Source of the DNA: a virus | DNA length: 13,322 nucleotides | Reading direction: 5' to 3' (one strand) | Virus genome (UHGV): UHGV-1734956 | Made by a program: the position numbers and the translations under genes | Notes under the pieces: model-generated | Seen by the model: the letters and a program-made list of their open reading frames with translations, nothing else | Database searches by the model: none | What the model was told of the DNA's origin: nothing | Shown: piece by piece, positions 1-13,322 of the stretch | Layout: the number at the start of each line of letters is the position of its first letter | How positions within the stretch are numbered: the stretch's first letter is position 1

Positions 1-38
1 ACCCTGTTTTCCTTGCCATAGACACCATCCCTGTCTTC

Positions 39-64
39 CCCCACATGATGTGGGGTTTTTTTTT
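39..64 (+). terminator. Rho-independent terminator-like hairpin (CCCCACA / TGTGGGG stem, 3-nt loop) followed by a T9 run
   Basis: Read directly: ccccacaTGAtgtgggg then ttttttttt on the + strand. May terminate a rightward-transcribed flanking gene or belong to the att core region. Confidence 0.55.
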
Positions 65-150
65 ATCAATTACTTACATGCAATCAAAAGTAAAAACAGG
101 TACTTATCGAAAGCTGTAAGGGTTTGGAGCGGTTTCAAAATTTCTTGAGT

Positions 151-170
151 GTGGACACTATGTGGACACT
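151..170. promoter_or_regulatory. Tandem direct repeat GTGGACACT-AT-GTGGACACT, putative integrase arm-type binding sites next to the int 3' end
   Basis: Two perfect 9-bp copies 11 bp apart, about 15-35 bp beyond the int stop. Contains TGTGGACA, which I recall as the P2 Int arm-site consensus (from memory, not verified). Confidence 0.4.
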
Positions 171-183
171 CAGAGGGGGAAAT

Positions 184-1164
184 TTATAACGTCACTCCGC
201 CTTTTAGTGGATTCAGAGCGACGGCATTTTGCAGATAGTCAGGCGCAAGGTGCGCATAGGCCATCGTCTGCTGAATGCTCGCATGTCCCAGAATCTGTTG
301 CAGTGCGATTATATTGCCCCCATTCATCATGAAATGGCTTGCGAATGTATGCCGCAGGATGTGGGTTGCCTGATTGGGTGGTATATCAGGTTTCACTCTG
401 CGTAAAATCCCGCAAAATTTCTCATAATCAACTTTGAATAATTTGGCGCTGGCCTCCTCTTTAACTTTTTTCTCCAGTTCCTCAGAAATCGGCACGGTTC
501 GCTTTTTACCGTTTTTGGTTTTCAGGAAGGTAACCCTGCAATTTGTAATCTGTGCTGGTTTTAGCGTGGCAACTTCCGTCCATCTTCCTCCAGTGCTCAG
601 ACATAAAAGCGCGACAAGTAAGTCATCACCAGCCAAAACATTTAACAGTTTTTCGATTTCTGCTTTTTCCAGGAACGTCATTTCAGGGTTGGCCTCCGCC
701 AGTGGCGGCAGTCCGTGAATTGGGTGTTGCCCGGAAAATTCATCCAATTGAATTAATTTTGTGAACATGCCGGATAATCGGTACATGTCACGGTTTATCG
801 TTGCGGCACTGATACCATCACGTAGTCGCATGGAACGATAATCCATCAAAGCCCTTTTGCTCATCCTGCTCACTGGTATATCACCTATGCCGCTGATGGT
901 TTTGAGTAGATGATTAAACTCTTTTGTTCCATGCTCGTGGTTTTGCCCGTGATATTTCCACCAGATGTCCAGCAACTCACTCAAAGTCCGGCGGTCTGCT
1001 CGCTGGCCTCCCCATTCTTTCTGACTGGCATTGGCGATTGTGTATCGCTCAAATGCTAGTGCTTCAGCTTTTCTTTCGAATTTCCTGCGGATGCGTTTTC
1101 CGTCGCGACCGCGAGGTCTAATGTCCACTTCATAGCGACCATCATCGAGCTTCTTAATTGCCAT
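184..1164 (-). CDS. int: Tyrosine recombinase / phage integrase (P2 Int-like)
   Basis: C-terminal ...ATHILRHTFASHFMMNGGNIIALQQILGHASIQQTMAYAHL is the tyrosine-recombinase catalytic region. N-terminus MAIKKLDDGRYEVDIRP matches what I recall of P2 Int. ATG at 1164 has a GGAGG 8 nt upstream, whereas the longer-ORF ATG at 1194 has none. Stop TAA at 184-186. Confidence 0.9.
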   Translation of the reverse strand: MAIKKLDDGRYEVDIRPRGRDGKRIRRKFERKAEALAFERYTIANASQKEWGGQRADRRTLSELLDIWWKYHGQNHEHGTKEFNHLLKTISGIGDIPVSRMSKRALMDYRSMRLRDGISAATINRDMYRLSGMFTKLIQLDEFSGQHPIHGLPPLAEANPEMTFLEKAEIEKLLNVLAGDDLLVALLCLSTGGRWTEVATLKPAQITNCRVTFLKTKNGKKRTVPISEELEKKVKEEASAKLFKVDYEKFCGILRRVKPDIPPNQATHILRHTFASHFMMNGGNIIALQQILGHASIQQTMAYAHLAPDYLQNAVALNPLKGGVTL

Positions 1165-1233
1165 AAGAAAGCCCTCCGGCGCTGTATTCACCATCTTGGT
1201 AGCAAATGGTGAAAATGTAATCTTTATATAGAG

Positions 1234-1527
1234 TTAGCCAATCCTTTTCGCGGAGTGGTTGGACTCTGTTGACTCTGGCCCAATGTGCGCGAGAGCCGGT
1301 GCGATTTGTCCTGCGTCCGGCGCGGTTTTATCTGTCATAAGCCATAGAGCATATTTTTGGAATGTGGGATGCATAGTGATTTTTAGCAAAGCTGTGCCAC
1401 CGGGTTCAAAGTTTCCTCCTTCATATTTTTTAAGTGTGCTTAGCGGTAACTCTATGATTTCACAGAATTTTGATTGGCTTAGCCCTTCAGCCTCACGCAA
1501 GGCCTTAATCTTTTCGCTTAATTTCAT
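1234..1527 (-). CDS. C: Immunity repressor (P2 C-like, helix-turn-helix)
   Basis: 97 aa. HTH-like segment LSQSKFCEIIELPLSTLKKYEGG. Sits immediately upstream of int on the same strand and divergent from the cox-like gene, as in the P2 C-int arrangement. Confidence 0.75.
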   Translation of the reverse strand: MKLSEKIKALREAEGLSQSKFCEIIELPLSTLKKYEGGNFEPGGTALLKITMHPTFQKYALWLMTDKTAPDAGQIAPALAHIGPESTESNHSAKRIG

Positions 1528-1648
1528 TTGACATGGTGCCTATATAGGGACTAAATTCCCTCAAAACTGGAACCTATATAGGTTCCATTGATTTGAGAAT
1601 AAACCAGCGTCTAAACGGTTTTGAGTGGTTTAGAAAGGGCTGGATCCT
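1528..1648. promoter_or_regulatory. Lysis-lysogeny switch region between divergent C and cox; two CCTATATAGG palindromes as putative operator/promoter elements
   Basis: CCTATATAGG at 1539-1548 and 1573-1582, the second inside a perfect 18-bp palindrome GGAACCTATATAGGTTCC (1569-1586). The 121-bp gap separates divergently transcribed repressor and cox genes. Confidence 0.5.
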
Positions 1649-1936
1649 ATGAGGGTACCATATATGGACGCTGAAAATTATGTGATTCAGTATCCGCTTA
1701 ATGCGGTTCATGTGGATAAATTTGCTGATTTATTAGGGAAGCCAAAGACAGCCGTCAGTGAAATGGTGAAGGCAAATAAATTACCAATTATTGAATTGCG
1801 TGATCCTTGCAAACCGAAGGCTCGTGCCGGTGAAAAATGGGTTTTCATTCCTGAGTTTAATCGCGCTGTACGAGAGGCGTTTTATAACCGACCAGTTGAA
1901 CAGCGTGATGCATGGCTTTTGTGGATGGGGTTGTGA
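1649..1936 (+). CDS. cox: Cox-like excisionase / transcriptional regulator (start may instead be the ATG at 1664)
   Basis: About 90-95 aa, first gene of the rightward early operon opposite the repressor. Ends ...RDAWLLWMGL, similar to my recollection of the P2 Cox C-terminus. Purine-rich SD-like sequence precedes both candidate starts. Confidence 0.7.
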   Translation: MRVPYMDAENYVIQYPLNAVHVDKFADLLGKPKTAVSEMVKANKLPIIELRDPCKPKARAGEKWVFIPEFNRAVREAFYNRPVEQRDAWLLWMGL

Positions 1937-1938
1937 TT

Positions 1939-2109
1939 ATGAGTGAACCGCGTTGTATTGCTCAGTTACTGCGTAACGAAAGCCCCAGGGCGATTGACTT
2001 CACCATCACCCACGGGAAGGGACGCAAGGGAATCATTATCCGCACCAAAAAACAGAGTCCGTTAAAGAAGGCTCTGACCTTTCTGAAAAGCCGGAGGGTC
2101 TGGAAATGA
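1939..2109 (+). CDS. Small early protein (P2 orf78-like position)
   Basis: ATG 2 nt after the cox stop; its stop overlaps the B start (ATGA). Basic, 56 aa. Supported by position and coupling only. Confidence 0.4.
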   Translation: MSEPRCIAQLLRNESPRAIDFTITHGKGRKGIIIRTKKQSPLKKALTFLKSRRVWK

Positions 2110-2606
2110 CAGTGATGACGCTTAATCTCGTTGAAAAACAGCCAGCAGCTATGCGCCGGATAATTGGTAAGCATCTGGCCGTCCCTCGCTGGCAGGATAC
2201 ATGTGATTATTATAATCAGATGATGGAACGCGAACGGCTAACGGTTTGCTTTCATGCGCAGTTAAAACAACGTCATGCAACGATGCGTTTTGAAGAAATG
2301 AACGACGTCGAACGTGAACGGCTGGTTTGTGCAATTGATGAATTGCGTGGGGCATTCTCAAAACGCCGTCAGGTTGGCGCAAGTGAGTATGCATATATTA
2401 GTTTTTTAACAGTCAGTCAGCGTCGTACTTTATTTATGCATGCCGGATTGACTGAAAAAGAATTCAACCAGCCATACTGGCGAATTAATGAAGAGTCATG
2501 TTACTGGCGTGATGCCTTATTCCGTGCATTACGTGAATTATTCAGCCTGTTTGAGTATGCACCGACAATTCTGACGTCGGTAAAACCAGAGCAATATCTG
2601 CATTAA
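2106..2606 (+). CDS. B: Replication protein B-like (P2 gpB-like)
   Basis: 166 aa, the length I recall for P2 gpB. GGAGG 8 nt upstream. Position between cox/orf78 and the small-ORF block matches P2. Confidence 0.7.
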   Translation: MTVMTLNLVEKQPAAMRRIIGKHLAVPRWQDTCDYYNQMMERERLTVCFHAQLKQRHATMRFEEMNDVERERLVCAIDELRGAFSKRRQVGASEYAYISFLTVSQRRTLFMHAGLTEKEFNQPYWRINEESCYWRDALFRALRELFSLFEYAPTILTSVKPEQYLH

Positions 2607-2669
2607 GTAATTAACCAGAGTTTTTAACGCACTTAATCGTGCGGGGCTTCTTTTTGCCTGGAGAAAGTC

Positions 2670-2894
2670 ATGCATACAGTTTCTGAAAATCAGTGCGGTA
2701 AATACGCATTACTGCTGCAACAGGCCAGAACCGAAGCACAGGCTGACGCTGCGACGCGCTTTTCTTCTCATCTTGACACCATGATTCGCCACATCACAAA
2801 GGCGGAGTTATCCCGCGTGGAGATAGTCGAGCTGCTCAGTCAGGAGTCGGAAAAATTTCACAATATCGGATTGTCTCGCGGGGAGGTGCTTTGA
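2670..2894 (+). CDS. Hypothetical early protein (P2 orf80-like position)
   Basis: 74 aa; GGAG 7 nt upstream of the ATG; stop overlaps the next start (TGATG). Confidence 0.55.
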
Positions 2895-3196
2895 TGTCCT
2901 GTTCTCATTCAGTTGTATTACTGAATAACGCCTTAAAAATCGCCGTTATGAAAAATGGCGATTTGTCTCTTATTCAACTTTGTCTTGATAAAGAAAAACG
3001 CGACATCACTGAATCTGTTATCGCGATTTATCAGAACGAATTAAACCTCCTGTCTGATGTGGTCAATTTACTTGTTAAACGCGCTGTGTTTCACAAGCAA
3101 ATCTCCTCCGTGGATGAACTGACGAAATTAACGACAGAAATCGCCAGCTATTGCGCTGATGAATTTAAAAACCTTAACGACAAAAGGAACTGGTAA
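2894..3196 (+). CDS. Hypothetical early protein (P2 orf81-like position)
   Basis: ATG at 2894 (the track's 2891 start is a TTG one codon upstream). GGGAGG upstream. Stop overlaps the next start (TAATG). Confidence 0.55.
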   Translation: MSCSHSVVLLNNALKIAVMKNGDLSLIQLCLDKEKRDITESVIAIYQNELNLLSDVVNLLVKRAVFHKQISSVDELTKLTTEIASYCADEFKNLNDKRNW

Positions 3197-3420
3197 TGCC
3201 GGACAACGTAGATTTTATTCAGGAACAACAAGCTGAATTACTGGAGCGCCAGATTAACGCGGCAAGGGTAAAACATTGCGGTGCTTCTGCGCTGGTTTGC
3301 GAAGAGTGTGACGCGCCAATACCTGCTGCCCGTCGTGCGGCTTACCCGTCAGCCACGCGTTGTGTTTCCTGTCAGTCAGTCTTTGAAGCAAAAAACAAAC
3401 ATTACCGGAGAACGGCATGA
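3196..3420 (+). CDS. TraR/DksA-family C4 zinc-finger protein (P2 orf82-like)
   Basis: CxxC-N(about 20)-CxxC: C-EEC ... C-VSC in a 74-aa protein; AAGGA upstream; stop overlaps the next start (ATGA). Confidence 0.65.
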   Translation: MPDNVDFIQEQQAELLERQINAARVKHCGASALVCEECDAPIPAARRAAYPSATRCVSCQSVFEAKNKHYRRTA

Positions 3421-3695
3421 GTATTCGTATTGAAATTGGCGAACGTTATGTCGTTACCAGTGACAGCTTTCAGTTTATTCTCCACGAGAAAAAGAGAGCG
3501 GAAAGCGGTAAAAACGCCGGTCAGGAATGGCTGGCGGTGGTTGGTTATTACCCGAAATTAAGCCAGCTCGTTTCCGGCCTGATGCATCACGATATTCTGA
3601 CCGGAAGCGCAAAGTCTTTTGCTGATTTAAACGCGCAGGTTGAGCAAATTAGTCAGCAATGTCTGACTGCATTTAACCATAAGTTCAGCCAATAA
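3417..3695 (+). CDS. Hypothetical early protein (P2 orf83-like position)
   Basis: 92 aa, coupled to the upstream ORF, GGAG upstream. Confidence 0.55.
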   Translation: MSIRIEIGERYVVTSDSFQFILHEKKRAESGKNAGQEWLAVVGYYPKLSQLVSGLMHHDILTGSAKSFADLNAQVEQISQQCLTAFNHKFSQ

Positions 3696-3709
3696 GCAGG
3701 GGACAGGTC

Positions 3710-4528
3710 GTGAATAACGTTGTTCATTACCACGGAACTCCTGTGTGGGGTGATGCAGGAAATGTTCATCGTATTGCTGTGAGTGGTGCAGGGGCATTTG
3801 TTTCCTATGCCCGGCCTGACCAACTCGTTGCCTCATTTAAACATGCTAAGTCCGTGGCGATTGATAATGGGGCTTTTTCAGCATGGAAAAGTGGCCTTGT
3901 TATCGACTGGCAGAAGTTTTATCAGTGGATTGCCCCTCATTATTATCATCCCAAACTGGCTTTCTTTGTCATACCTGATGTGGTGGACGGGGATGAAGCG
4001 GACAACGATGCGCTGATTAAAGCGTTGCCTCGTTGTTTTAGAGAAAAAGCTACTCCAGTCTGGCATCTGCATGAATCCTTGCAACGCCTTGTCGAACTTT
4101 GCCGGGAATGGCCTCGTGTTTGTTTTGGTTCTTCTGGCGATTACGCCACTGTCAGAACTGCACTCTGGCATAGCCGGATGCAGGATGCATTTGAAACCAT
4201 TTATCTTAAATATGGTTTTAGTACCCGCATTCATGGTCTGCGCATGCTTGATGGGCGCATTCTCGGTAATTATCCGCTGCATACAGCAGACAGCACTAAC
4301 CTTGCCTGTAACGTACCAAAATATCTTATCAAATATCCCGAACTGACAAGGGCAATCAGTGAGGCAGACTATACACAAAAACTTTCTGAGAAGGAGTTGA
4401 AGGCGTTCATCCTTAAAGGACGGTGTGCAATTCTGAAAAATTCTGTGGAGTCGGTTTTTCCTCCATCGATTGCTGAATGGGCATCAAATAGCCTTGCTCC
4501 ATCACAAATGGAGTTAGCTTTCGCATGA
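3710..4528 (+). CDS. Hypothetical 272-aa protein inserted between the orf83-like gene and A; function unknown (weak, speculative TGT/DpdA-like motif resemblance)
   Basis: GTG start with a purine-rich SD; stop overlaps the A start (ATGA). No equivalent gene at this position in canonical P2 as I recall it. Motifs HGTPVWGD and AIDNGAFSAWKSG loosely resemble the TGT-family TPxFMPVGT and DSGGFQ motifs. Confidence 0.6.
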   Translation: MNNVVHYHGTPVWGDAGNVHRIAVSGAGAFVSYARPDQLVASFKHAKSVAIDNGAFSAWKSGLVIDWQKFYQWIAPHYYHPKLAFFVIPDVVDGDEADNDALIKALPRCFREKATPVWHLHESLQRLVELCREWPRVCFGSSGDYATVRTALWHSRMQDAFETIYLKYGFSTRIHGLRMLDGRILGNYPLHTADSTNLACNVPKYLIKYPELTRAISEADYTQKLSEKELKAFILKGRCAILKNSVESVFPPSIAEWASNSLAPSQMELAFA

Positions 4529-6738
4529 CGATTTATGCTTACTCCTGGAACAAACCAAATGAAGCAATAGGACGCGAAAGATCTCTTACACGTGACGAGA
4601 TGCGTCAGGTGCAAGGTGTTTTATCCACGATTAACCGCCTGCCTTACTTTTTGCGTTCGCTGTTTACTTCACGCTATGACTACATCCGGCGCAATAAAAG
4701 CCCGGTGCACGGGTTTTATTTCCTCACATCCACTTTTCAGCGTCGTTTATGGCCGCGCATTGAGCGTGTGAATCAGCGCCATGAAATGAACACCGACGCG
4801 TCGTTGCTGTTTCTGGCAGAGCGTGACCACTATGCGCGCCTGCCTGGAATGAATGACAAGGAGCTGAAAAAGTTTGCCGCCCGTATCTCATCGCAGCTTT
4901 TCATGATGTATGAGGAACTCTGCGATGCATGGGTTGATGCGCATGGTGAAAAAGAATCGCTGTTTACGGATGAGGCGCAGGCTCACCTGTATGGTCATGT
5001 TGCTGGCGCTGCACGTGCTTTCAATATTTCCCCGCTCTACTGGAAAAAATACCGTAAAGGACAGATGACCACGAGGCAGGCATATTCTGCCATTGCCCGC
5101 CTGTTTAACGATGAGTGGTGGACTCATCAGCTTAAAGGCCAGCGTATGCGCTGGCATGAGGCGTTACTGATTGCTGTCGGGGAGGTCAATAAAGACCGTT
5201 CTCCTTATGCCAGTAAACATGCCATTCGTGATGTGCGTGCGCGCCGCCAGGCAAATCTGGAATTTCTTAAATCGTGTGACCTCGAAAACAGGGAAACCGG
5301 CGAACGCATCGACCTTATCAGTAAGGTGATGGGCAGTATTTCTAATCCTGAAATTCGCCGGATGGAGCTGATGAACACCATTGCCGGTATTGAGCGTTAC
5401 GCCGCCGCAGAGGGTGATGTGGGGATGTTTATCACGCTGACCGCGCCGTCAAAGTATCACCCGACACGTCAGGTCGGAAAAGGCGAAAGTAAAACCGTTC
5501 AGCTTAATCACGGCTGGAACGATGAGGCATTTAATCCAAAGGATGCGCAGCGTTATCTCTGCCGTATCTGGAGCCTGATGCGCACGGCATTCAAGGATAA
5601 TGATTTACAGGTCTACGGTTTGCGAGTCGTCGAGCCACACCACGACGGAACGCCGCACTGGCATATGATGCTTTTTTGTAATCCACGCCAGCGTAACCAG
5701 ATTATCGAAATCATGCGTCGCTATGCGCTCAAAGAGGATGGCGACGAAAGAGGAGCCGCGCGAAACCGTTTTCAGGCGAAACACCTTAACCGGGGCGGTG
5801 CTGCGGGGTATATCGCGAAATACATCTCAAAAAATATCGACGGCTATGCACTGGATGGTCAGCTCGATAATGATACCGGCAGACCGCTGAAAGACACTGC
5901 CGCGGCTGTTACCGCATGGGCGTCAACGTGGCGCATCCCGCAATTTAAAACGGTTGGTCTGCCGACAATGGGGGCTTACCGTGAACTACGCAAATTGCCT
6001 CGCGGCGTCAGCATTGCTGATGAGTTTGACGAGCGCGTCGAGGCTGCACGCGCCGCCGCAGACAGTGGTGATTTTGCGTTGTATATCAGCGCGCAGGGTG
6101 GGGCAAATGTCCCGCGCGATTGTCAGACTGTCAGGGTCGCCCGTAGCCCGTCGGATGACGTTAACGAGTACGAGGAAGAAGTCGAGAGAGTGGTCGGCAT
6201 TTACGCGCCGCATCTCGGCGCGCGTCATATTCATATCACCAGAACGACGGACTGGCGCATTGTGCCGAAAGTTCCGGTCGTTGAGTCTTTGACTTTAAAA
6301 AGCGGCATCGCCGCGCCTCGGAGTCCTGTCAATAACTGTGGAAAGCTCACCGGTGGTGATACTTCGTTACCGGCTCCCACACCTTCTGAGCACGCCGCAG
6401 CAGTGCTTAATCTGGTTGATGACGGTATTATCGAATGGAATGAGCCGGAGGTCGTGAAGGCGCTCAGGGGCGCATTAAAACACGGGCTGAGAACGCCAAA
6501 CCGTCAGCAAAGAAACGGAAGCACGTTAAAACCACATGAAATTGCACCATCGGCCAGACTGAGCCGGTCGGAACGATTGCAAATCACCCGTATCCGCGTT
6601 GACCTTGCTCAGAATGGAATCTTGCCCCAGCGATGGGAGCTTGAGGCGCTGGCGCGTGGGGCAACCGTAAATTATGACGGGAAACAATTCACGTATCTGG
6701 CTGCTGATGAGTGGCCGGGATTCTCAACAAACATATAA
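4525..6738 (+). CDS. A: Rolling-circle replication initiator (P2 gpA-like HUH endonuclease)
   Basis: 737 aa. HUH-type motif EPHHDGTPHWHMMLF (about 5630-5675) and paired-tyrosine motif AAGYIAKYISKN (about 5800-5835), as in phiX174 gpA / P2 gpA-type initiators. Last gene of the early operon. Confidence 0.9.
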   Translation: MTIYAYSWNKPNEAIGRERSLTRDEMRQVQGVLSTINRLPYFLRSLFTSRYDYIRRNKSPVHGFYFLTSTFQRRLWPRIERVNQRHEMNTDASLLFLAERDHYARLPGMNDKELKKFAARISSQLFMMYEELCDAWVDAHGEKESLFTDEAQAHLYGHVAGAARAFNISPLYWKKYRKGQMTTRQAYSAIARLFNDEWWTHQLKGQRMRWHEALLIAVGEVNKDRSPYASKHAIRDVRARRQANLEFLKSCDLENRETGERIDLISKVMGSISNPEIRRMELMNTIAGIERYAAAEGDVGMFITLTAPSKYHPTRQVGKGESKTVQLNHGWNDEAFNPKDAQRYLCRIWSLMRTAFKDNDLQVYGLRVVEPHHDGTPHWHMMLFCNPRQRNQIIEIMRRYALKEDGDERGAARNRFQAKHLNRGGAAGYIAKYISKNIDGYALDGQLDNDTGRPLKDTAAAVTAWASTWRIPQFKTVGLPTMGAYRELRKLPRGVSIADEFDERVEAARAAADSGDFALYISAQGGANVPRDCQTVRVARSPSDDVNEYEEEVERVVGIYAPHLGARHIHITRTTDWRIVPKVPVVESLTLKSGIAAPRSPVNNCGKLTGGDTSLPAPTPSEHAAAVLNLVDDGIIEWNEPEVVKALRGALKHGLRTPNRQQRNGSTLKPHEIAPSARLSRSERLQITRIRVDLAQNGILPQRWELEALARGATVNYDGKQFTYLAADEWPGFSTNI

Positions 6739-6799
6739 AAATGATTGAAATGGTTGATTTTGCTTCCACTTGATGGTTGGTATCAGCAACTGATGGATC

Positions 6800-7060
6800 A
6801 TGCGGAACTGCGTGGCAATCTTGCTTTGGAAGCATGTCATTATGACTAATGCATACATTACTAGCTATGCGTCCGGTTCCGCCATTGTACTCGTGCAAGA
6901 GTCTCCGGCTGATGGCTATTGTTTACAAATTATGGTCAAAGAGAATCTGACCCTCTACGAGTTGGTCGGAGGGACTGAGATCGTCAGTGATAACTGCAGC
7001 CGTATGGGAGAAATAAATAATCCCAACCGTCCATATTTCTACCTTCACGCGTGCCCATAA
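6800..7060 (+). CDS. Small hypothetical ORF in the variable hotspot (86 aa; alternative start at 6842 gives 72 aa)
   Basis: Open frame only; no recognisable motif and weak ribosome-binding context. Position corresponds to the variable region downstream of A. Confidence 0.3.
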   Translation: MRNCVAILLWKHVIMTNAYITSYASGSAIVLVQESPADGYCLQIMVKENLTLYELVGGTEIVSDNCSRMGEINNPNRPYFYLHACP

Positions 7061-7081
7061 TCTGTCACCACGTTGACCATA

Positions 7082-7124
7082 GAAAATCCCGCCGACGCTG
7101 AAACTCGCTTTCAGTGCTGGCGGG
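7082..7124 (-). terminator. Long GC-rich hairpin (about 16-bp imperfect stem, loop CTCGC) followed on the - strand by AUUUUCU; putative terminator for the RT gene, possibly bidirectional
   Basis: CCCGCC(7088-7093)/GGCGGG(7119-7124) outer stem with CTGAAA/TTTCAG inner stem. Lies between the convergent + small ORF / A operon and the - strand RT gene. Confidence 0.45.
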
Positions 7125-7187
7125 GTTGAACAACGAGCTTGCGAGGCGTTAGGGATGTCGAAATTTCATATGACTGTTCGCTTTAAT

Positions 7188-7231
7188 GCTTAACGAAGTC
7201 ATGTTGAGTTAATAACATTGTTTCGTTAAGC
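7188..7231. repeat. Perfect 10-bp inverted repeat GCTTAACGAA ... TTCGTTAAGC with a 24-nt loop that itself contains ATGTT...AACAT; overlaps the RT stop codon
   Basis: Read directly: arms at 7188-7197 and 7222-7231; the RT TAA (7226-7228, - strand) lies inside the right arm. Confidence 0.6.
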
Positions 7232-8770
7232 GCTGTGTTCCTTGTCGAATAAGTTCACTTCTTCTGGTGTAATATCAGTATCCATTTCTTCGAATGCATC
7301 TAAATCCACAATTTTTGTTTTTTTCAAAATTGATAGTATTTTCTGTTTGTTTTTATTTTTGGCTGAACCCGGAATCCACTCTACATCCCACAGGCCATCA
7401 ATGGTAAATGTTTTTTTTCCCTTGAGTTCATCATTTATGCGTTGACATAGGGCTGTTTTGTAATCGCCTTCCCATTGTGTGTGTATCTTCCCTTGAACTC
7501 GTTGAAACCAAATATCTAACATTTCAGTATTTGGTTGTTTACCTAGTTTACAATGAAGTTGTTGTAACTTGCCAAATTTGAGTTCATCGTCGTCATAAAG
7601 GAAGGTCAAGAGTTTTGCGAAAATAGCCATTCCCACTGGGTAGGTGGTTGGGTTTTTAGCCATGATGCTTGAAATAATTCCAAGCATTGCATCTAGTTGA
7701 TGCCCACTATTTGTGATCTTTTTCTTCCTAAATAATTTCCGCAAGAAATCATTTAAATATCTGACTGTAATTTTGGAGTTTTGATGTTTTAAAGAAAATA
7801 AATATATTGCATACAACATTTTCTGTAGGGAGTTGAACGACCCTTCTATAATATATTCTTTTTTTGCTGATTTAAGGGAGTGAAGAATGATGTCGTCATG
7901 TAGTTCTGTTTTTCTTGAGTTTAAATCAAGCCCAAACTCACCTAAGACCTCAACCAAACACTTTGAGATTTTGTCCAAATCATCTTTACTGCTTGAAAAT
8001 ATTCGATAATCATCTCTGTAGCGAACTACTTTGTAATCCGTTATTTTTTGCTCTTCGGTTTTTTTTCTTAGCTGTAAATCAATTTCGCCTAAAATTAATT
8101 CGGCAAATGTATCCATCAACGTACTACCCAATGGTATTCCGTTTGTCTGATTACTCATCATCATCTGGATATGAGTGTCAATCAATCGTCCTGGGTTATT
8201 GTTATTTTCTTTCTTTTTGGCCTCTTCTTTTGAGATGAATACCCATTCAAAGCTATGAGTGTAAATAGAAGGGTAGAAGTTTGAAATATCTGTGCTGAAC
8301 ATGAACTCATACTCAAGAGCCAATGAAAGACTTTTTTGTTCAAAATCTTCCCACCAGTTTAAAACAGATGCAGCTACGTTTGAGGTGTTCTTTTTGCTCA
8401 CTGGGATACTTGAGCATAAAAAAAGATCATTAGACTCAAACTCTCTAAATTTATTCCTTATAGCATTCCAGTTGGAAGAGGATGTAATAAGTTTACAAAA
8501 ATACACGTAGTACAGAGGATTAATTAGTGTTATTCGTCGCCAGCTATATAAGCCATCTTTGCTGACTAAAACCTCGTAATTTATATTCTTCCCCATCAAT
8601 GACTTGGAGTCAGGTTGGAAGTTGATTTTACCTTCATCTATCGCGGAGTTGATTTCTTCAAGCAAGGAAGAAAAATCGACATAACTGGGTAGCTCCAGAG
8701 TAGTGTATGAATCATGCTGCAGAAAATACTTAAGCGCTCTACCAGTAGTTAATTCATAAATCTTTTTCAT
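7226..8770 (-). CDS. Reverse transcriptase, defence-associated Abi-type (Abi-P2 / AbiK-like class), 514 aa
   Basis: RT motifs in the translation: FSTDISNFYPSIYTHS (motif A), NGIPLGSTLMDTFAELILGEID (motif B), VRYRDDYRIF (YxDD motif C), LDLNSRKTEL (motif D), then about 200 aa of C-terminal extension. ATG at 8770 (MKKIYEL...) chosen because the AT-rich body begins there; the track ORF extends to a TTG at 8896. Strongly AT-rich relative to flanks. Confidence 0.85.
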   Translation of the reverse strand: MKKIYELTTGRALKYFLQHDSYTTLELPSYVDFSSLLEEINSAIDEGKINFQPDSKSLMGKNINYEVLVSKDGLYSWRRITLINPLYYVYFCKLITSSSNWNAIRNKFREFESNDLFLCSSIPVSKKNTSNVAASVLNWWEDFEQKSLSLALEYEFMFSTDISNFYPSIYTHSFEWVFISKEEAKKKENNNNPGRLIDTHIQMMMSNQTNGIPLGSTLMDTFAELILGEIDLQLRKKTEEQKITDYKVVRYRDDYRIFSSSKDDLDKISKCLVEVLGEFGLDLNSRKTELHDDIILHSLKSAKKEYIIEGSFNSLQKMLYAIYLFSLKHQNSKITVRYLNDFLRKLFRKKKITNSGHQLDAMLGIISSIMAKNPTTYPVGMAIFAKLLTFLYDDDELKFGKLQQLHCKLGKQPNTEMLDIWFQRVQGKIHTQWEGDYKTALCQRINDELKGKKTFTIDGLWDVEWIPGSAKNKNKQKILSILKKTKIVDLDAFEEMDTDITPEEVNLFDKEHSA

Positions 8771-8976
8771 AATTAGTGATTTCTTCTTAAGTTGCGCACA
8801 AATAACTACCTGTTTTCTATCATGATAACGATGCGAATGCGAGCAATTCAGGAAGTGCATTACTCTGCATCGAAGCGCACGCAAGTCAGAGAACAATAAC
8901 TGCCTGGCGACATCAGGACTGGCGCGCTAGTTGAGTGGTCATGCAACTGCATTAAAACCGCCCCATGAAGCGGGCG

Positions 8977-8995
8977 GGCGAGGCGGGGAAAGCAC
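8977..8995. other. cos site core: GGCGAGGCGGGGAAAGCAC, the 19-nt P2/P4 cohesive-end sequence
   Basis: Exact 19-mer read at 8977-8995, about 170 bp beyond the portal stop and between the hotspot and Q, as in P2. The cos sequence is recalled from memory. Confidence 0.65.
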
Positions 8996-9137
8996 TGCGC
9001 GCTGGCGGTGGTGCTGATTTTATTTTTTCAGCGTCTGAGCGCGTCGTGAAGGCGCTTAGTCTGCCCGTTGAGGCGTTGGTGTGTCTGCGGGGTGTTTTGT
9101 GCGGTGGTGAGCGTGTGAGGGCGTGATGACGGGGTGT

Positions 9138-9159
9138 AAAAAAGCCGCCCGCAGGCGGC
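9138..9159 (-). terminator. Rho-independent terminator of the P-Q operon
   Basis: - strand reads GCCGCCTGCGGGCGGC (6-bp GC stem, 4-nt loop) followed by TTTTTT, starting 6 nt after the portal stop. Confidence 0.65.
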
Positions 9160-9164
9160 GATGT

Positions 9165-10188
9165 TCAGCCGTTGTCAGTGTCCAGTGAGTAGTTTTTAAA
9201 GCGGATGACCTCCTGACCGAGCCAGCCGTTTATCTCGCGGATCCTGTCCTGTAGCGGGATAAGCTCATTACGGACAAAGACCTTTGCCACTTTCTCAATA
9301 TCACCCAGCGACCCGACGTTCTCCGGCTTGCCGCCCATCAACTGAAAGGGGATGCGGTGCGCGTCCAGCAGGTCAGCGGCGCTGGCTTTTTTGATATTAA
9401 AAAAATCGTCCTTCGTTGCCACTTCACTGAGCGGGATAATTTTAATACCGTCGGCTTTTCCCTGTGGGGCGTAGAGAAACAGGTTTTTAAAGTTGTTGCG
9501 GCCTTTCGACTTCACCATGTTTTCGCGAAGCATTTCGATCCTGCACGGCATCAGTGACGTACATGATGTATCCGGCATGTGCGCCGTTTTCGTAATACTT
9601 GCGGCGGAACAGCGTGGCCGACTCATTCAGCCAGGCAGAGTTAAGGGCGCTGAGATATTCCGGCAGGCCGTACAGCTCCTGATTGATATCCGGCTCCAGC
9701 AGGTGAAACACGGAGCCGGGCGCGAAAGGTGTCGGCTCGTTGAAGGACGGCACCCACCAGTAAACATCCTCCTCCACGCCACGGCGGGTATATTTTGCCG
9801 GTGAGGTTTCCAGTCTGATGACCTTACCGGTGGTGCTGTAACGCTTTTCCAGAAACGCATTACCGAACACCAGAAAATCCAGCACAAAGCGGCTGAAATC
9901 CTGCTGGGAAAGCCACGGGTGCGGAATAAACGTTGAAGCCAGAATATTACGTTTGACGTAAATCGGTGAGCTGTGATGTACGGCAGCACGCAGGCTTTTT
10001 GCCAGACCGGTAAAGCTGATCGGTGGCTCATACCATCTGCCGTTACTGATGCACTCGACGTAATCCAGAATGTCACGGCGGTCGAGTACCGGCACCGGTT
10101 CACCAAAGGTGAATGCCTCCATTTTCGGGGCGCTGGCGGTCATTTTTTTTGCCGCAGGTTGCGGTGTTTTCCCTTTTTTCTTGCTCAT
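9165..10188 (-). pseudogene. Q: Portal protein (P2 gpQ-like) interrupted by a frameshift near 9535-9550
   Basis: Two overlapping - strand ORFs in different frames (9487..10188 and 9165..9626) together give about 340 aa, close to the 344 aa I recall for P2 gpQ. Start overlaps the terminase stop (TGATG). No single intact ORF exists in this sequence. Confidence 0.6.
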
Positions 10189-11960
10189 CAGTAAAACTCC
10201 AGAATGGTGGATGTCAGCGGGGTGCTGATACCGGCGGTGAGTGGCTCATTTAACAGGGCGTGCATGGTCGCCCAGGCGAGGTCGGCGTGGCTGGCTTCCT
10301 CGCTGCGGCTGGCCTCATAGGTGGCGCTGCGTCCGCTGCTGGTCATGGTCTTGCGGATAGCCATAAACGAGCTGGTGATGTCGGTGGCGCTGACGTCATA
10401 TTCCAGACAGCCACGGCGAATAACGTCTTTTGCCTTGAGCACCATTGCGGTTTTCATTTCCGGCGTGTAGCGGATATCGCGCGCGGCGGGATAGAACGAG
10501 CGAACGAGCTGGAACACGCCGACACCGAGGCCGGTGGCATCAATTCCGATGTATTCGACGTTGTATTTTTCGGTGAGTTTGCGGATGGATTCAGCCTGGG
10601 TGGCAAAGTCCATGCCTTTCCACTGGTGACGCTCAAGTATTCTGAATTTGCCACCGGCCACCACCGGCGGTGCCAGCACCACGCATCCGGCACTGTCGCC
10701 ACGGTGTGACGGGTCGTAACCAATCCATACCGGACGTGAGCCGAACGGATTGGCGGCAAACGGCGCATAGTCTTCCCATTCTTCCAGCGTGTCGACCATG
10801 CAGCGTTGCAGCTCCTCGAACGGGAACACCGACGCCTTGTCGTCAACAAATTCACACATGAACAGGTTTTTAAAATCGTCGGCGCTGTTTTCACGTTTGA
10901 GCTGCTCAATGTCGAACAGTGTGCAGCCACCTTTCAGGGCATCCTCAATGGTGACAATCTGCCGCCACTGGCCGTCCGCACAGAGAAGACCACCGGCAAG
11001 GGCGTTATGACTGACGTCGATTTCCACGCGTTCGGCGGCGCTGGCGCGTCCCCGGTTGAACAGTTCACCTGACCAGAACGGGTAGGCGTCGTGCGCCAGC
11101 GTGGACGGGGTGGAGAAATAGGTCGAGCGCAGGTGACTCTGTGAGGCCATACCTGATGCTACCTTACGCAGTACCTGAAAATTCGGGATCCAGAAAATCT
11201 CGTCGACGTACAGGTCGCCGTTATGGCTCTGCGCGGTGTTGGAGTTGGTGCCGAGAAAAATCAGTTTTGCACCGTTATTGCCCAGGACAATCGGGTCACC
11301 GGTCAGGTCAACGTCAACCAGCCGGGCAAAGGCAATGATGTATTCGCGGAACACATACGCCTGCGTTTTACTGGCCGACAGAAAAATCTGGTTATGACCG
11401 GTTTTCAGGGCGCGCAGCAGCGCCTCGCGGGAAAAATAAAACGTTGCGCCAATCTGGCGGGATTTCAGGATATCGCGGATGCGGTGCTCAAGCCCGGCGC
11501 GATACCAGTGCAACTGATAGTCGAAAGACTGCTCAAAGAAAATCTGCTCCAGCTTTTCGATGGCCTCGTCACTGAAAAAATTCTTTTTCGGTTTGCGCCG
11601 TCCGCCTTTGTTGCGGTTAGCGACGTTCGGATTAAGGTCTGCCTCGTTGCCGGTCTGACTGTAACGGTTTACCCGTGCCAGTCGTTCAATCTGGCGTCCC
11701 AGCAGGTCAATTTCCTTGAAGTCACCGCCGGTTTTCTGCGGTTTGATGATGAGCTGGGTCAGCCGCGCTTCCAGACTCATTTCGACACGGCTGATGGGGG
11801 CAACGCTGTCCCAGCCGTCGCGCTGTTTCCAGCTCTGCACCGTCGGGCGTTTCATCTGCAACATGGCGGCAATCTGCGGCACGGAAAACCCCTGCCAGTA
11901 CAGCAGCGCCGCCTGACGACGCGGGTCGTGTAAAAGAGTGGTGTCTGTGGTGATGGTCAT
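10188..11960 (-). CDS. P: Terminase large (ATPase) subunit, P2 gpP-like
   Basis: 590 aa from the ATG at 11960 (GAGG 6-7 nt upstream), the length I recall for P2 gpP; the track's longer ORF begins at a TTG (11990). Upstream of and coupled to the portal gene, divergent from O. Confidence 0.85.
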   Translation of the reverse strand: MTITTDTTLLHDPRRQAALLYWQGFSVPQIAAMLQMKRPTVQSWKQRDGWDSVAPISRVEMSLEARLTQLIIKPQKTGGDFKEIDLLGRQIERLARVNRYSQTGNEADLNPNVANRNKGGRRKPKKNFFSDEAIEKLEQIFFEQSFDYQLHWYRAGLEHRIRDILKSRQIGATFYFSREALLRALKTGHNQIFLSASKTQAYVFREYIIAFARLVDVDLTGDPIVLGNNGAKLIFLGTNSNTAQSHNGDLYVDEIFWIPNFQVLRKVASGMASQSHLRSTYFSTPSTLAHDAYPFWSGELFNRGRASAAERVEIDVSHNALAGGLLCADGQWRQIVTIEDALKGGCTLFDIEQLKRENSADDFKNLFMCEFVDDKASVFPFEELQRCMVDTLEEWEDYAPFAANPFGSRPVWIGYDPSHRGDSAGCVVLAPPVVAGGKFRILERHQWKGMDFATQAESIRKLTEKYNVEYIGIDATGLGVGVFQLVRSFYPAARDIRYTPEMKTAMVLKAKDVIRRGCLEYDVSATDITSSFMAIRKTMTSSGRSATYEASRSEEASHADLAWATMHALLNEPLTAGISTPLTSTILEFY

Positions 11961-12133
11961 GAATACCTCGCCGTGATGAATACACGGCAAGGCTACTGAG
12001 TCGCGCCCCGCGATTCGCTAAGGTGCTGTTGTGTCAGTGATAAGCCATCCGGGACTGATGGCGGAGGATGCGCATCGTCGGGAAACTGATGCCGACATGT
12101 GACTCCTCTAATCACTATTCAGGACTCCTGACA
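11961..12133. promoter_or_regulatory. Divergent late-promoter region between P (-) and O (+); expected site of Ogr-type activator-dependent promoters
   Basis: 173-bp gap between divergently transcribed packaging operons. Call is by position, analogous to P2 P_P/P_O; no specific activator site identified. Confidence 0.35.
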
Positions 12134-12988
12134 ATGGCAAAAAAAGTCTCAAAATTCTTTCGTATCGGCGTTGAGGGTGACACCTGTGACGGGCGTGTCA
12201 TCAGTGCGCAGGATATTCAGGAAATGGCCGAAACCTTTGACCCGCGAGTCTATGGTTGCCGCATTAACCTGGAACATCTGCGCGGCATCCTGCCTGACGG
12301 TATTTTTAAGCGTTATGGCGATGTGGTCGAACTGAAGGCCGAAAAGATTGACGATGATTCGGCGCTGAAAGGCAAATGGGCGCTGTTTGCGAAAATCACC
12401 CCGACCGATGACCTTATCGCGATGAACAAGGCCGCGCAGAAGGTCTACACCTCAATGGAAATTCAGCCGAACTTTGCCAACACCGGCAAATGTTATCTGG
12501 TGGGTCTGGCCGTCACCGATGACCCGGCAAGCCTCGGCACGGAATACCTGGAATTCTGCCGCACGGCAAAACACAACCCCCTGAACCGCTTCAAATTAAG
12601 CCCTGAAAACCTGATTTCAGTGGCAACGCCCGTTGAGCTGGAATTTGAAGACCTGCCTGAAACCGTGTTCACCGCCCTGACCGAAAAGGTGAAATCCATT
12701 TTTGGCCGCAAACAGGCCAGCGATGACGCCCGTCTGAATGACGTGCATGAAGCCGTGACCGCTGTTGCTGAACATGTGCAGGAAAAACTGAGCGCCACTG
12801 AGCAGCGCCTCGCTGAGATGGAAACCGCTTTTTCCGCACTTAAGCAGGATGTGACTGACAGGGCGGATGAAACCAGCCAGGCATTCACCCGCCTGAAAAA
12901 CAGTCTCGACCACACCGAAAGTCTGACCCAGCAGCGCCGCAGCAAGGCCACCGGTGGTGGCGGTGACGCCCTGATGACGAACTGCTGA
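12134..12988 (+). CDS. O: Capsid scaffolding protein, P2 gpO-like
   Basis: 284 aa from ATG 12134 (MAKKVSKFFRIGVEGDTCDGRV...), AGGA about 9 nt upstream; length and N-terminus match what I recall of P2 gpO. Confidence 0.85.
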   Translation: MAKKVSKFFRIGVEGDTCDGRVISAQDIQEMAETFDPRVYGCRINLEHLRGILPDGIFKRYGDVVELKAEKIDDDSALKGKWALFAKITPTDDLIAMNKAAQKVYTSMEIQPNFANTGKCYLVGLAVTDDPASLGTEYLEFCRTAKHNPLNRFKLSPENLISVATPVELEFEDLPETVFTALTEKVKSIFGRKQASDDARLNDVHEAVTAVAEHVQEKLSATEQRLAEMETAFSALKQDVTDRADETSQAFTRLKNSLDHTESLTQQRRSKATGGGGDALMTNC

Positions 12989-13046
12989 CCGGCGTCAGTC
13001 AGTCCGGGAAAACCTTCACGATTAACCCTTAATTTCAGGAAAAACT

Positions 13047-13322
13047 ATGCGCCAGGAAACCCGCTTTAAATTTAATGCCTACCTGTCCCGTGTTGCCGAA
13101 CTGAACGGCATCGACGCCGGTGATGTGTCGAAAAAATTCACCGTTGAACCGTCGGTCACCCAGACCCTGATGAACACCATGCAGGAGTCCTCTGACTTTC
13201 TGACCCGCATCAACATTGTGCCGGTCAGCGAAATGAAAGGGGAAAAAATTGGTATTGGTGTCACCGGCTCCATCGCCAGCACCAGCGACACCGCCGGTGG
13301 CACCGAGCGTCAGCCGAAGGAC
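13047..13322 (+). CDS. N: Major capsid protein, P2 gpN-like (5' partial; runs off the window end)
   Basis: ATG at 13047 with CAGGA upstream; translation MRQETRFKFNAYLSRVAELNGIDAGD... stays open to the last base. Absent from the supplied ORF track because no stop is reached. Confidence 0.8.
   Translation, partial: MRQETRFKFNAYLSRVAELNGIDAGDVSKKFTVEPSVTQTLMNTMQESSDFLTRINIVPVSEMKGEKIGIGVTGSIASTSDTAGGTERQPKD

Follow-up and report, generated by a model that had tools for sequence, protein, structure and literature searches.

Genes at the Locus

The stretch of viral DNA analysed here (hereafter the window, 13,322 nt) carries at positions 7226-8770, on the minus strand, an intact gene of 514 amino acids for Abi-P2 (AbiP2), a reverse transcriptase (RT)-like polymerase of class 1 of the UG/Abi group. 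To its left lies the replication gene A (gpA; 4525-6738, plus strand), which matches the Pfam family Phage_GPA with E = 2.9e-124. To its right are the cos cohesive-end sequence GGCGAGGCGGGGAAAGCAC (8977-8995), read directly from the sequence, and the portal gene Q (9165-10188, minus strand). The 19 nt of cos are identical to those that the P2 record (AF063097) marks as cosR at its end, and the linear record of phage L-413C ends at this same position. Gene Q is present as two overlapping ORFs, both matching Phage_portal; relative to strain B7A, whose portal gene is intact, it has lost 11 bp near 9535, which disrupts it. Genes for gpA, portal, terminase and scaffold proteins surround the slot, whose position is that of the gpA-gpQ hotspot known from P2-like phages (Rousset et al. 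2022, PMC9122126). Rapid swapping of defence genes, with AbiP2 found in P2, has been described (PMC13586616).

AbiP2 is the best PADLOC family (E = 6e-160, 531 bits), with residues 1-512 aligned to positions 4-487 of a profile of 489, whereas the next-best family, Drt6 (E = 6.7e-47), and the other secondary matches to Drt4 and AbiK are distant (E = 1e-29 to 1e-47). An uninterrupted sequence alignment to PDB 7r08 (E = 3.6e-256) covers residues 1-508 of the 514, including the helical C-terminal domain seen in the solved Abi-P2 structure. Pfam RVT_1 is found above cut-off, a YRDD motif occupies residues 251-254 (VVRYRDDYRIF), and the catalytic residues D161, D253 and D254 are invariant in an alignment of 12 family members. 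The start of the protein at the ATG at 8770 is shared by the orthologues, and the upstream extension lacks in-frame conservation. Among species-representative genomes, a search for relatives of AbiP2 gave only two loci.

The closest known system is that of prophage P2-EC58 (ORF544, AM157368), which shows 98.9% DNA identity over the entire variable region, ORF85 included, although its original annotation used a 544-aa start in place of the 514-aa start supported here by the orthologues. The slot between gene A and cos and the YRDD motif are common to P2-EC58, P2-EC30 (orf570) and the window, whereas the backbone differs from both phages in an extra orf272 module, another integrase and immunity region, and the broken portal gene. 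The allele found here is about 75% identical to an orf570-type E. coli protein, P0051, so that its phage range may differ.

Exclusion of phage T5 by orf570 of P2-EC30 depends on the YRDD motif (Odegrip 2006, as cited in PMC8632793 and PMC9508834). [quoted passage not shown] The Abi-P2 homologue studied in that work is a trimer that makes DNA, for which the authors identified no priming residue. Like the protein described here, AbiK of Lactococcus, DRT4 and other class 1 UG/Abi RTs combine an RT-like domain with a helical domain, but AbiK is a plasmid-borne hexamer and Abi-P2 a prophage-borne trimer (PMC9508834). By analogy with its close homologues, we infer that the allele in the window would encode a trimeric RT-like enzyme capable of making DNA without a template. 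Protein priming, as for AbiK, is thought to initiate this synthesis. In a lysogen, such an enzyme would be expected to block T5 through abortive infection, as published for the same homologues.

Base Composition

The island at 7130-8770 that the original prediction had described as poor in G+C is confirmed by the recomputed profile, with a G+C content of 0.354 against 0.528 in gene A and 0.555 from cos rightwards (8977-13322). It is the lowest-G+C stretch of 1641 bp in the whole window (the global minimum starts at 7182), it lies 3.3 sd under all non-overlapping windows, and it differs from the rest of the sequence with a chi-square p of 8e-31. The predicted drop is real, but its level had been set too low, at roughly 30%, when the actual value is about 35% and only locally 28-34%. 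Similarly, flanks well above 50% G+C are found on the gene A and cos/late-gene sides (53-56%) but not in the early region (1-4524), where G+C is only 45.5%. The proposed check of codon usage also singles out the RT gene, which has a GC3 of 0.36 versus 0.55-0.70 in genes A, P and O, an RSCU correlation with these three genes of -0.32, and a depletion of G+C at all three codon positions. This deviation in both G+C and codon usage, bounded by sharp edges, defines a compositional island, which contains the AbiP2 gene and no other.

The right border is not where it had been expected. Maximum-likelihood change points in G+C fall at 7160 and 8862 instead of 7130 and 8770, so the switch occurs some 90 nt upstream of the RT start codon and not at the ATG itself. 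The 92 bases preceding this codon (8771-8862) have a G+C content of 0.359 and are part of the island. A leader of backbone-like composition had been proposed for the whole of 8771-8976, a description that fits 8863-8976 (0.561) and fails for the AT-rich portion next to the gene.

Boundaries and Proposed Control Elements of the Cargo

Homology of other P2-like phages to the window stops at about 6715-6729 and resumes at about 8934-8942, with unrelated genes in between. Six other phages carry unrelated cargo between the same flanks, and the occupants of the slot include Fic, DUF4238, DUF4209, SIR2, DUF2971 and AAA ATPase genes as well as old/tin, while one locus is empty. The view of the island as hotspot cargo was thus correct, as related phages carry unrelated genes between conserved flanks.

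Next to gene A lies an accessory segment (6739-7056, plus strand; G+C 0.453) with ORF86 (6800-7060), which corresponds to ORF85 of P2-EC58. The full-length segment occurs in only 63 E. coli genomes, a count that matches the 64 RT carriers. ORF86 matches phrog_13272, of unknown function, without Pfam, PADLOC or NCBIfam matches or any RefSeq annotation, and its five variable sites show no bias to the third codon position. The segment may be non-coding remnant DNA.

It is followed by a hairpin element (7057-7152, minus strand), in which a CCCGCC...GGCGGG stem precedes GTTGAACAACGAGC...GAGGCGTTAG. The predicted stem is on the minus strand, with AUUUUCUAU after it. The element is present in 43 other E. 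coli genomes with 81-94% identity, and in the six other loci inspected it occupies the same slot, beside SIR2, DUF2971, a 313-aa protein (two loci), the YpM50 gene and an empty slot. All these sequences diverge directly past ...GAGGCGTTAG at 7152. P2 itself lacks the element, as do several other P2-like phages, and it is therefore not a universal boundary. It has the appearance of a terminator for cargo transcripts that run leftward, and the AbiP2 transcript would end at this conserved structure.

On the cos side, full-length copies of 8771-8932 are found only in the 64 genomes carrying the AbiP2 block, whereas in 459 E. coli genomes that lack this cargo only about the last 35-56 nt before cos match. 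A conserved core flanking cos (8936-8976) is evident from alignments and consists of a hairpin, CCGCCC...GGGCGG, followed by TTTTAATGCAGTTGCAT. Farther to the left, phased ATGCA repeats on the minus strand (8856-8880) comprise exact copies at 107 and 117 nt from cos and a degenerate one at 97 nt. Of 16 loci, 15 have an ATGCA at 25 nt from cos, and one to four further copies at 90-120 nt (mostly 97, 107 and 117-120) occur both in satellite P4 and in 15 P2-like loci, whose cargoes are of about ten kinds. These repeats, to which we would ascribe a packaging role, may already feature in work from 1990 on the P2 and P4 cos sites; our literature search found no accessible account of P2 cos architecture.

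Since the hairpin and the ATGCA repeats bracket it, the cargo proper can be delimited as the AT-rich sequence from 7153 to ~8852 (minus strand, 1.70 kb, G+C 0.352). The sharpness of the island edges would follow from this location between two functionally constrained elements of normal G+C, namely the hairpin ending at 7152 and a cos packaging region that would reach ~125 nt to the left of cos, as far as the phased ATGCA repeats.

A candidate promoter is also found within the cargo (8814-8843, minus strand), with CTCGCA at 8843-8838, an 18-nt spacer and TGaTAGAAA at 8822-8814. CTCGCA and TCATGATAgAAAA are kept upstream of AbiP2 orthologues in E. coli, Klebsiella, Salmonella and Serratia, and a scan for the strict sigma-70 consensus detected no promoter on the minus strand ahead of the gene. 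As only AbiP2 orthologues share these likely promoter motifs, the promoter would travel with the cargo, and AbiP2 is probably transcribed leftward, away from cos, from its own promoter.

The region of P2 that holds old and tin (the 'TO' or gpA-gpQ cos-adjacent hotspot) offers a close parallel, with the same position, an AT-rich cargo, leftward transcription from the cos side and conserved ATGCA repeats beside cos. It differs in its cargo, the old nuclease and tin in place of one RT-like gene, and in lacking the hairpin on the gene A side. In the P2 record, the old-tin mRNA starts ~150 nt from cosR, beside or just downstream of the ATGCA cluster. The idea of a promoter-proximal slot is consistent with this start near cos in P2, but the candidate promoter described here is specific to AbiP2.

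Exchange between Prophages

A block of low divergence that includes cos (6703-9003) is shared by every carrier of this AbiP2 allele that was sampled and is apparently the unit of exchange. It is 99.2-100% identical in the other carriers, and 64 complete E. coli genomes have it at 99.2% identity or more; 11 further complete E. coli genomes hold P2-like prophages with AbiP2. At four-fold sites, divergence is 1.6% in the RT gene (~160 sites) versus 7.6-8.3% in genes A, Q and P, about five times higher, a comparison based on seven carriers each set against the window and hence not independent of one another. In the five carriers with a diverged gene A, mismatches fall from about one in 10 bp (6417-6702) to about one in 150 bp within the block, and past 9004-9050 their density climbs once more in each carrier sampled at that end, while the two closest carriers are identical already from 6300. 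Conversely, three genomes whose orf272 module is 99.8-99.9% identical to that of the window (gene A ~97%) carry three other cargoes, and the combination of orf272 and AbiP2 was seen in no complete E. coli genome. The high identity of the block, the low divergence of RT and these swaps of cargo bear out the horizontal movement that had been proposed, and recombination between diverged P2-like backbones would explain them.

We put at about 93% the probability that the window is an E. coli prophage of the P2-like (Peduovirus) type whose island is exchanged cargo, AbiP2, of the gpA-cos-gpQ defence hotspot. That the dip in G+C could be a product of chance, or of the ordinary compositional variation within a phage, might be argued from the early region, which likewise falls to 0.39 in places; this is hardly credible for a stretch that is the global minimum, lies so far below the other windows with such a low p value, and has edges that match the homology junctions. 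Nor is the RT at all likely to be part of a retron, a group II intron or a DGR, with the island as a self-mobile element inserted in the prophage. The generic RVT_1 domain, all that Pfam reports, would be compatible with such an element, and a retron Ec48-type system occurs nearby in some carriers, but that retron sits across cos and is absent here, the AbiP2 profile is both the best and full-length, and the NCBIfam models for retron and group II intron RTs score 35-42 bits, far from their cut-offs of 235-300. Assignment to these two classes was consequently rejected, as a search of the whole window against Rfam matched no family, intron and retron RNAs included, and hence gave no evidence of an associated non-coding RNA. 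The RT described here is to be annotated as a defence gene and not as a retroelement.

Odegrip (2006, as cited in PMC8632793 and PMC9508834) had already reported that the variable region is AT-rich and of horizontal origin, and that it excludes T5. With island and defence gene already published, only the exact junctions needed correcting. The current understanding of Abi-P2 and of the P2 hotspot is unchanged, and what is gained is a clean annotation with exact cargo junctions for a well-studied hotspot.

Low G+C and the Age of the Transfer

The deduction of a recent acquisition from composition is not supported. Whether their flanks are at 0.35 or at 0.64, orthologues from Klebsiella, Salmonella, Serratia, Aeromonas, Proteus and Xenorhabdus (71-86% protein identity) have a G+C content of 0.32-0.36, so low G+C in the AbiP2 cargo is no sign of recency and should not be taken as evidence for recent transfer. 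The other cargoes of the slot are likewise AT-rich (0.33-0.42). Low G+C is a long-standing trait of this gene family, and of hotspot cargo generally, and not a clock for its acquisition.

An unameliorated transfer from a low-G+C donor, joined at the start of the RT gene after a conserved backbone promoter and leader, would agree with the roughly five-fold lower divergence of the cargo at four-fold sites and with the annotated P2 old-tin start near the conserved ATGCA cluster. We consider it unlikely, since the orthologues of six other genera keep the same composition beside any flank, the junction is already contradicted by the switch at 8862 instead of 8770, the leader is full-length only in carriers of the block, and its motifs are conserved among AbiP2 orthologues only. 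There is a somewhat better, albeit still minor, chance that fixed functional elements both set the edges of the slot and channel the swapping of cassettes, the AT-richness being selected. The ATGCA repeats, about one helical turn apart, could then be bound by the shared P2 terminase as its recognition sites, leaving the ~125 nt to the left of cos untouchable, and the gene A side would be closed by the hairpin terminator ending in ...GAGGCGTTAG, with the cargo swapped as a cassette in between. AT-richness would be kept here by selection, for instance through H-NS control of a toxic gene, and not by recency. Taken by itself, selection for AT-richness, either by H-NS silencing of a toxic abortive-infection gene or by weak codons that limit expression, is a more plausible proposal, to which we nevertheless give less than even odds. 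The stability of G+C and GC3 across hosts, the depletion at all three codon positions, the anti-correlated RSCU and the low G+C of the other cargoes all favour it, but in these data it is not separable from a mutation-and-transfer equilibrium in the mobile gene pool. For the mining of phage hotspots, the stability of low G+C in this cargo may be helpful to know, as may the conserved non-coding elements on either side of the slot, usable as anchors for the automatic extraction of cargo from P2-like prophages.

Composition and identity of the island

The drop in G+C originally reported at 7130-8770 is real, with a sliding profile, exact counts, a chi-square test and codon usage all in agreement. 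In a 300-bp sliding profile, G+C falls from 0.46-0.60 to 0.32-0.40 over ~7050-8850, and exact counts give 0.354 for 7130-8770, 0.528 for the replication gene A (4525-6738), 0.555 for 8977-13322 and 0.455 for the early region (1-4524). No 1641-bp stretch of the window is lower in G+C than this island, which lies 3.3 sd under all non-overlapping windows of the same size (chi-square p = 8e-31 for the island vs the remaining window). The reverse transcriptase (RT) gene shows GC1/GC2/GC3 values of 0.39/0.30/0.36, with GC3 at 0.55-0.70 in genes A, P and O, and its RSCU correlation with A+P+O is -0.32. The edges are another matter, as the original prediction had placed the switch at the RT start codon (ATG 8770) and regarded the 8771-8976 leader as backbone-like. 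A two-boundary maximum-likelihood fit sets the edges at 7160 and 8862, and 8771-8862 still has a G+C of 0.359, which puts the right edge upstream of the ATG. Within the leader, only 8863-8976 has a backbone-like G+C (0.561), and this part is best read as an extended cos region.

The window is a P2-like prophage, carrying an integrase (184-1194), gene A (Phage_GPA, E = 2.9e-124), portal, large terminase and scaffold genes, and the P2 cohesive-end sequence GGCGAGGCGGGGAAAGCAC at 8977-8995. The sole long ORF of the island (7226-8770, minus strand, 514 aa) matches the PADLOC AbiP2 profile along its entire length (E = 6e-160), and Drt6, Drt4 and AbiK far more weakly. Its residues 1-508 match chain 7r08_A (E = 3.6e-256; deposited name "reverse transcriptase"), which starts MKKVYELTSEE, as does the orf570-type E. 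coli gene. At the DNA level, 6682-8962 is 98.9% identical to GenBank AM157368 ("P2-EC58 proviral ORF444 DNA"), which encodes ORF85 and ORF544, the latter labelled "putative reverse transcriptase". The catalytic D161 and YRDD (residues 251-254), invariant across the family, are intact. Retron and group II intron RT models score far under their cut-offs, and no Rfam family was matched anywhere in the window. ATG 8770 is the start common to orthologues of E. coli (orf570 type), Klebsiella, Salmonella, Serratia and Entomohabitans, upstream of which the sequences differ by indels with lengths not divisible by three; since these break the frame, N-terminal extensions to 544 or 556 aa are unsupported.

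The RT gene thus belongs to the Abi-P2 family and occupies the gpA-gpQ hotspot known from P2-like phages (Odegrip 2006; Rousset 2022, PMC9122126). An Abi-P2 crystal structure has been reported (PMC9508834), and the compositional anomaly with its horizontal-transfer reading appears in PMC8632793. The finding as a whole is already known.

Junctions of the cargo

The cargo was delimited in three ways, which were compared: homology to phages with other cargo, finer anatomy and the population block. The window aligns with STYP1, pro483, 569R9, vB_YpM_50 and L-413C up to 6715-6729, resuming at 8934-8938; the intervening cargo is Fic in STYP1, DUF4238 in pro483 and DUF4209 in 569R9. The full-length 8771-8976 leader occurs in only 64 of 5,426 complete E. 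coli genomes, a count equal to that of the RT carriers, and in a further 459 the match is confined to the final 35-56 nt before cos.

At the left side, 7057-7152 is a 96-nt element made of a hairpin followed by GTTGAACAACGAGC...GAGGCGTTAG, found in 43 further genomes at 81-94% identity. It occupies the same slot in all other loci examined, where its neighbour is SIR2, DUF2971, a 313-aa protein or the YpM50 gene, or where the slot is essentially empty, and past ...GAGGCGTTAG (7152) all these sequences diverge at once. The end of this element and the ATGCA repeats on the cos side define a cargo proper from 7153 to ~8852 (1,700 bp, G+C 0.352), within 10 nt of the compositional change points. The idea that the island marks the hotspot cargo is hence borne out, with its coordinates corrected to 7153-~8852. 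In five sampled carriers of the allele with diverged gene A, mismatches to the window are dense to 6702 and sparse over 6703-9003, and the two closest carriers are identical already from 6300; beyond cos, mismatches are dense again in all carriers sampled there.

The ATGCA motif was followed in 16 loci (L003-L007, L016, L017, L020, L022, phage P2 as L023, satellite P4 as L024, L025-L028 and the window). One copy lies 25 nt from cos in 15 of them, and all 15 P2-like loci have 1-4 extra copies 90-120 nt from cos, mostly at 97, 107 and 117-120 nt, spaced about one helical turn. This spacing is independent of the cargo (about ten different ones in the 15 P2-like loci), and P4 shares these distances. 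In the window (regions 8856-8880 and 8948-8952), the positions 8952, 8870 and 8860 each begin an exact copy, and a degenerate one is at 8880. These motifs may be terminase recognition repeats.

Horizontal exchange and low G+C

Seven carriers (pro147, HKUOPY1, B7A, GDAR2-2, a KPC plasmid with a P2-like prophage, EC93 and DCE7) are 99.2-99.9% identical to the window in the island, 95.9-97.5% in gene A and 95.1-97.2% in Q. Divergence at four-fold degenerate sites, which are few and always compared with the window as common reference, is 1.6% for the RT gene (18/1124 sites), 8.3% for A, 7.9% for Q and 7.6% for P. The distinctive module of orf272, an ORF just upstream of gene A, is shared by just three complete genomes (99.8-99.9% identical; gene A ~97%), which bear three different unrelated cargoes without AbiP2. 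Horizontal exchange of the cargo is therefore well supported. The allele of the window (EC58-type) is present in 64 of 5,426 complete E. coli genomes and the EC30-type in 11, and a DUF5405-gene A backbone query of P2-like prophages matches at least 1,612.

Exchange stands, but not the recency originally read from composition. AbiP2 orthologues with 71-86% protein identity keep a G+C of 0.32-0.36 (GC3 0.28-0.38) although their surroundings differ widely. In Klebsiella and Salmonella they occupy P2/186-like slots, and in Serratia the degraded remains of a P2-like element; the Proteus gene lies in a lambdoid prophage (flanks 0.35-0.39), that of Xenorhabdus in another prophage, adjoining head and packaging genes, and that of Aeromonas at a chromosomal site beside sucCD (flanks 0.62-0.64). 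Since other cargoes of the same slot are also at 0.33-0.42, low G+C is a stable trait of the AbiP2/hotspot gene pool, and no sign of recent arrival; either selection or a balance of mutation and transfer may keep it low. Altogether, the original prediction is partly supported, as cargo and horizontal exchange hold whereas the ATG junction and composition-based recency fail. Modest new points are the junctions at 7152/7153 and ~8852-8862, the two conserved elements that frame the cargo, the occurrence of the phased ATGCA repeats in P4 as well and an AT-richness persisting across hosts.

Proposed expression and function

The functional account is drawn from the literature on close homologues. 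PMC8632793 and PMC9508834 place Abi-P2 genes in a region of P2-like prophages that is variable, rich in AT and presumed to be of horizontal origin, and state that deletion of the YRDD-encoding region abolishes the Abi-P2 effect. Template-independent, protein-primed synthesis has been described for Abi polymerases, with a covalent tyrosine-DNA link observed in AbiK (PMC9508834), and Abi-P2 counts among the stand-alone class 1 UG/Abi enzymes (PMC9226505).

The AbiP2 gene would be transcribed leftward from a candidate cargo-borne promoter at 8843-8814 (CTCGCA, 18 nt, TGaTAGAAA), whose motifs are conserved upstream among orthologues and were not called by a strict consensus promoter scan. Transcription would stop at the conserved hairpin, where the minus-strand stem is followed by AUUUUCUAU. 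Two terminator-like hairpins after portal gene Q flank cos, and the AbiP2 gene, downstream of both, is thus probably insulated from late transcription. In the P2 record, the annotated old-tin mRNA starts 149-151 nt from cosR, just downstream of the ATGCA cluster, and by our own reading a -35-like TTGAAT overlaps the third repeat. The proposal of a promoter-proximal slot holds in part: it agrees with P2, but in the window the promoter would belong to the cargo. A perfect 10-nt palindrome at 8820-8829, TATCATGATA, overlaps the proposed -10 and is mostly kept in orthologues (TCATGATA); some regulator could use it as an operator.

Other variable modules

The end of portal gene Q is separated from cos by a second variable slot (window 9004-9240; loci L001, L008, L010, L012, L013). 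It is empty in the window, encodes a 333-aa hypothetical protein in HKUOPY1 and holds a retron Ec48-type RT with a membrane effector in pro147, GDAR2-2, EC93 and DCE7, so some prophages have RT-based systems on both sides of cos. Relative to strain B7A, where gene Q is intact, an 11-bp deletion at ~9535 breaks the gene of the window (9165-10188) into two overlapping ORFs; the sequences on either side of the gap both start CGAT. The prophage is probably defective, with an intact AbiP2 gene.

The orf272 product (3710-4528, 272 aa) resembles queuine tRNA-ribosyltransferases (phrog_887, E = 8.8e-87). It was not seen in any sampled AbiP2 carrier, and among 5,426 complete E. coli genomes only 3 match a query spanning it in full length. 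This has the look of a further exchangeable module, which may serve DNA modification. Compared with the prophages that have the cargo or the orf272 module in common with the window, the integrase/repressor region (1-1600) shows only 72-80% identity over ~20% of its length, and thus represents a different integrase and immunity type; the module combination of the window was found in no complete E. coli genome.

ORF86 (6800-7060; phrog_13272, function unknown) is ORF85 of P2-EC58. It occurs in 63 genomes, vs 64 for the AbiP2 allele, is absent beside the orf570 allele and lacks RefSeq annotation. As part of the segment (6908-6993) resembles intergenic DNA of Yersinia phage vB_YpM_50 (72% similarity), it may be a recombination remnant and not a gene. 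In E. coli DCE7 (L013, locus 3075-4055), an IS5 interrupts this segment, which separates gene A from the AbiP2 gene, at ~6861-6864 of the window. Lastly, the island falls at exactly 2699-4439 in many complete E. coli chromosome records, which indicates that those assemblies start inside a P2-like prophage, at gene A or slightly ahead of it; an automatic rotation tool mistaking gpA for a replication-initiator gene may explain them.
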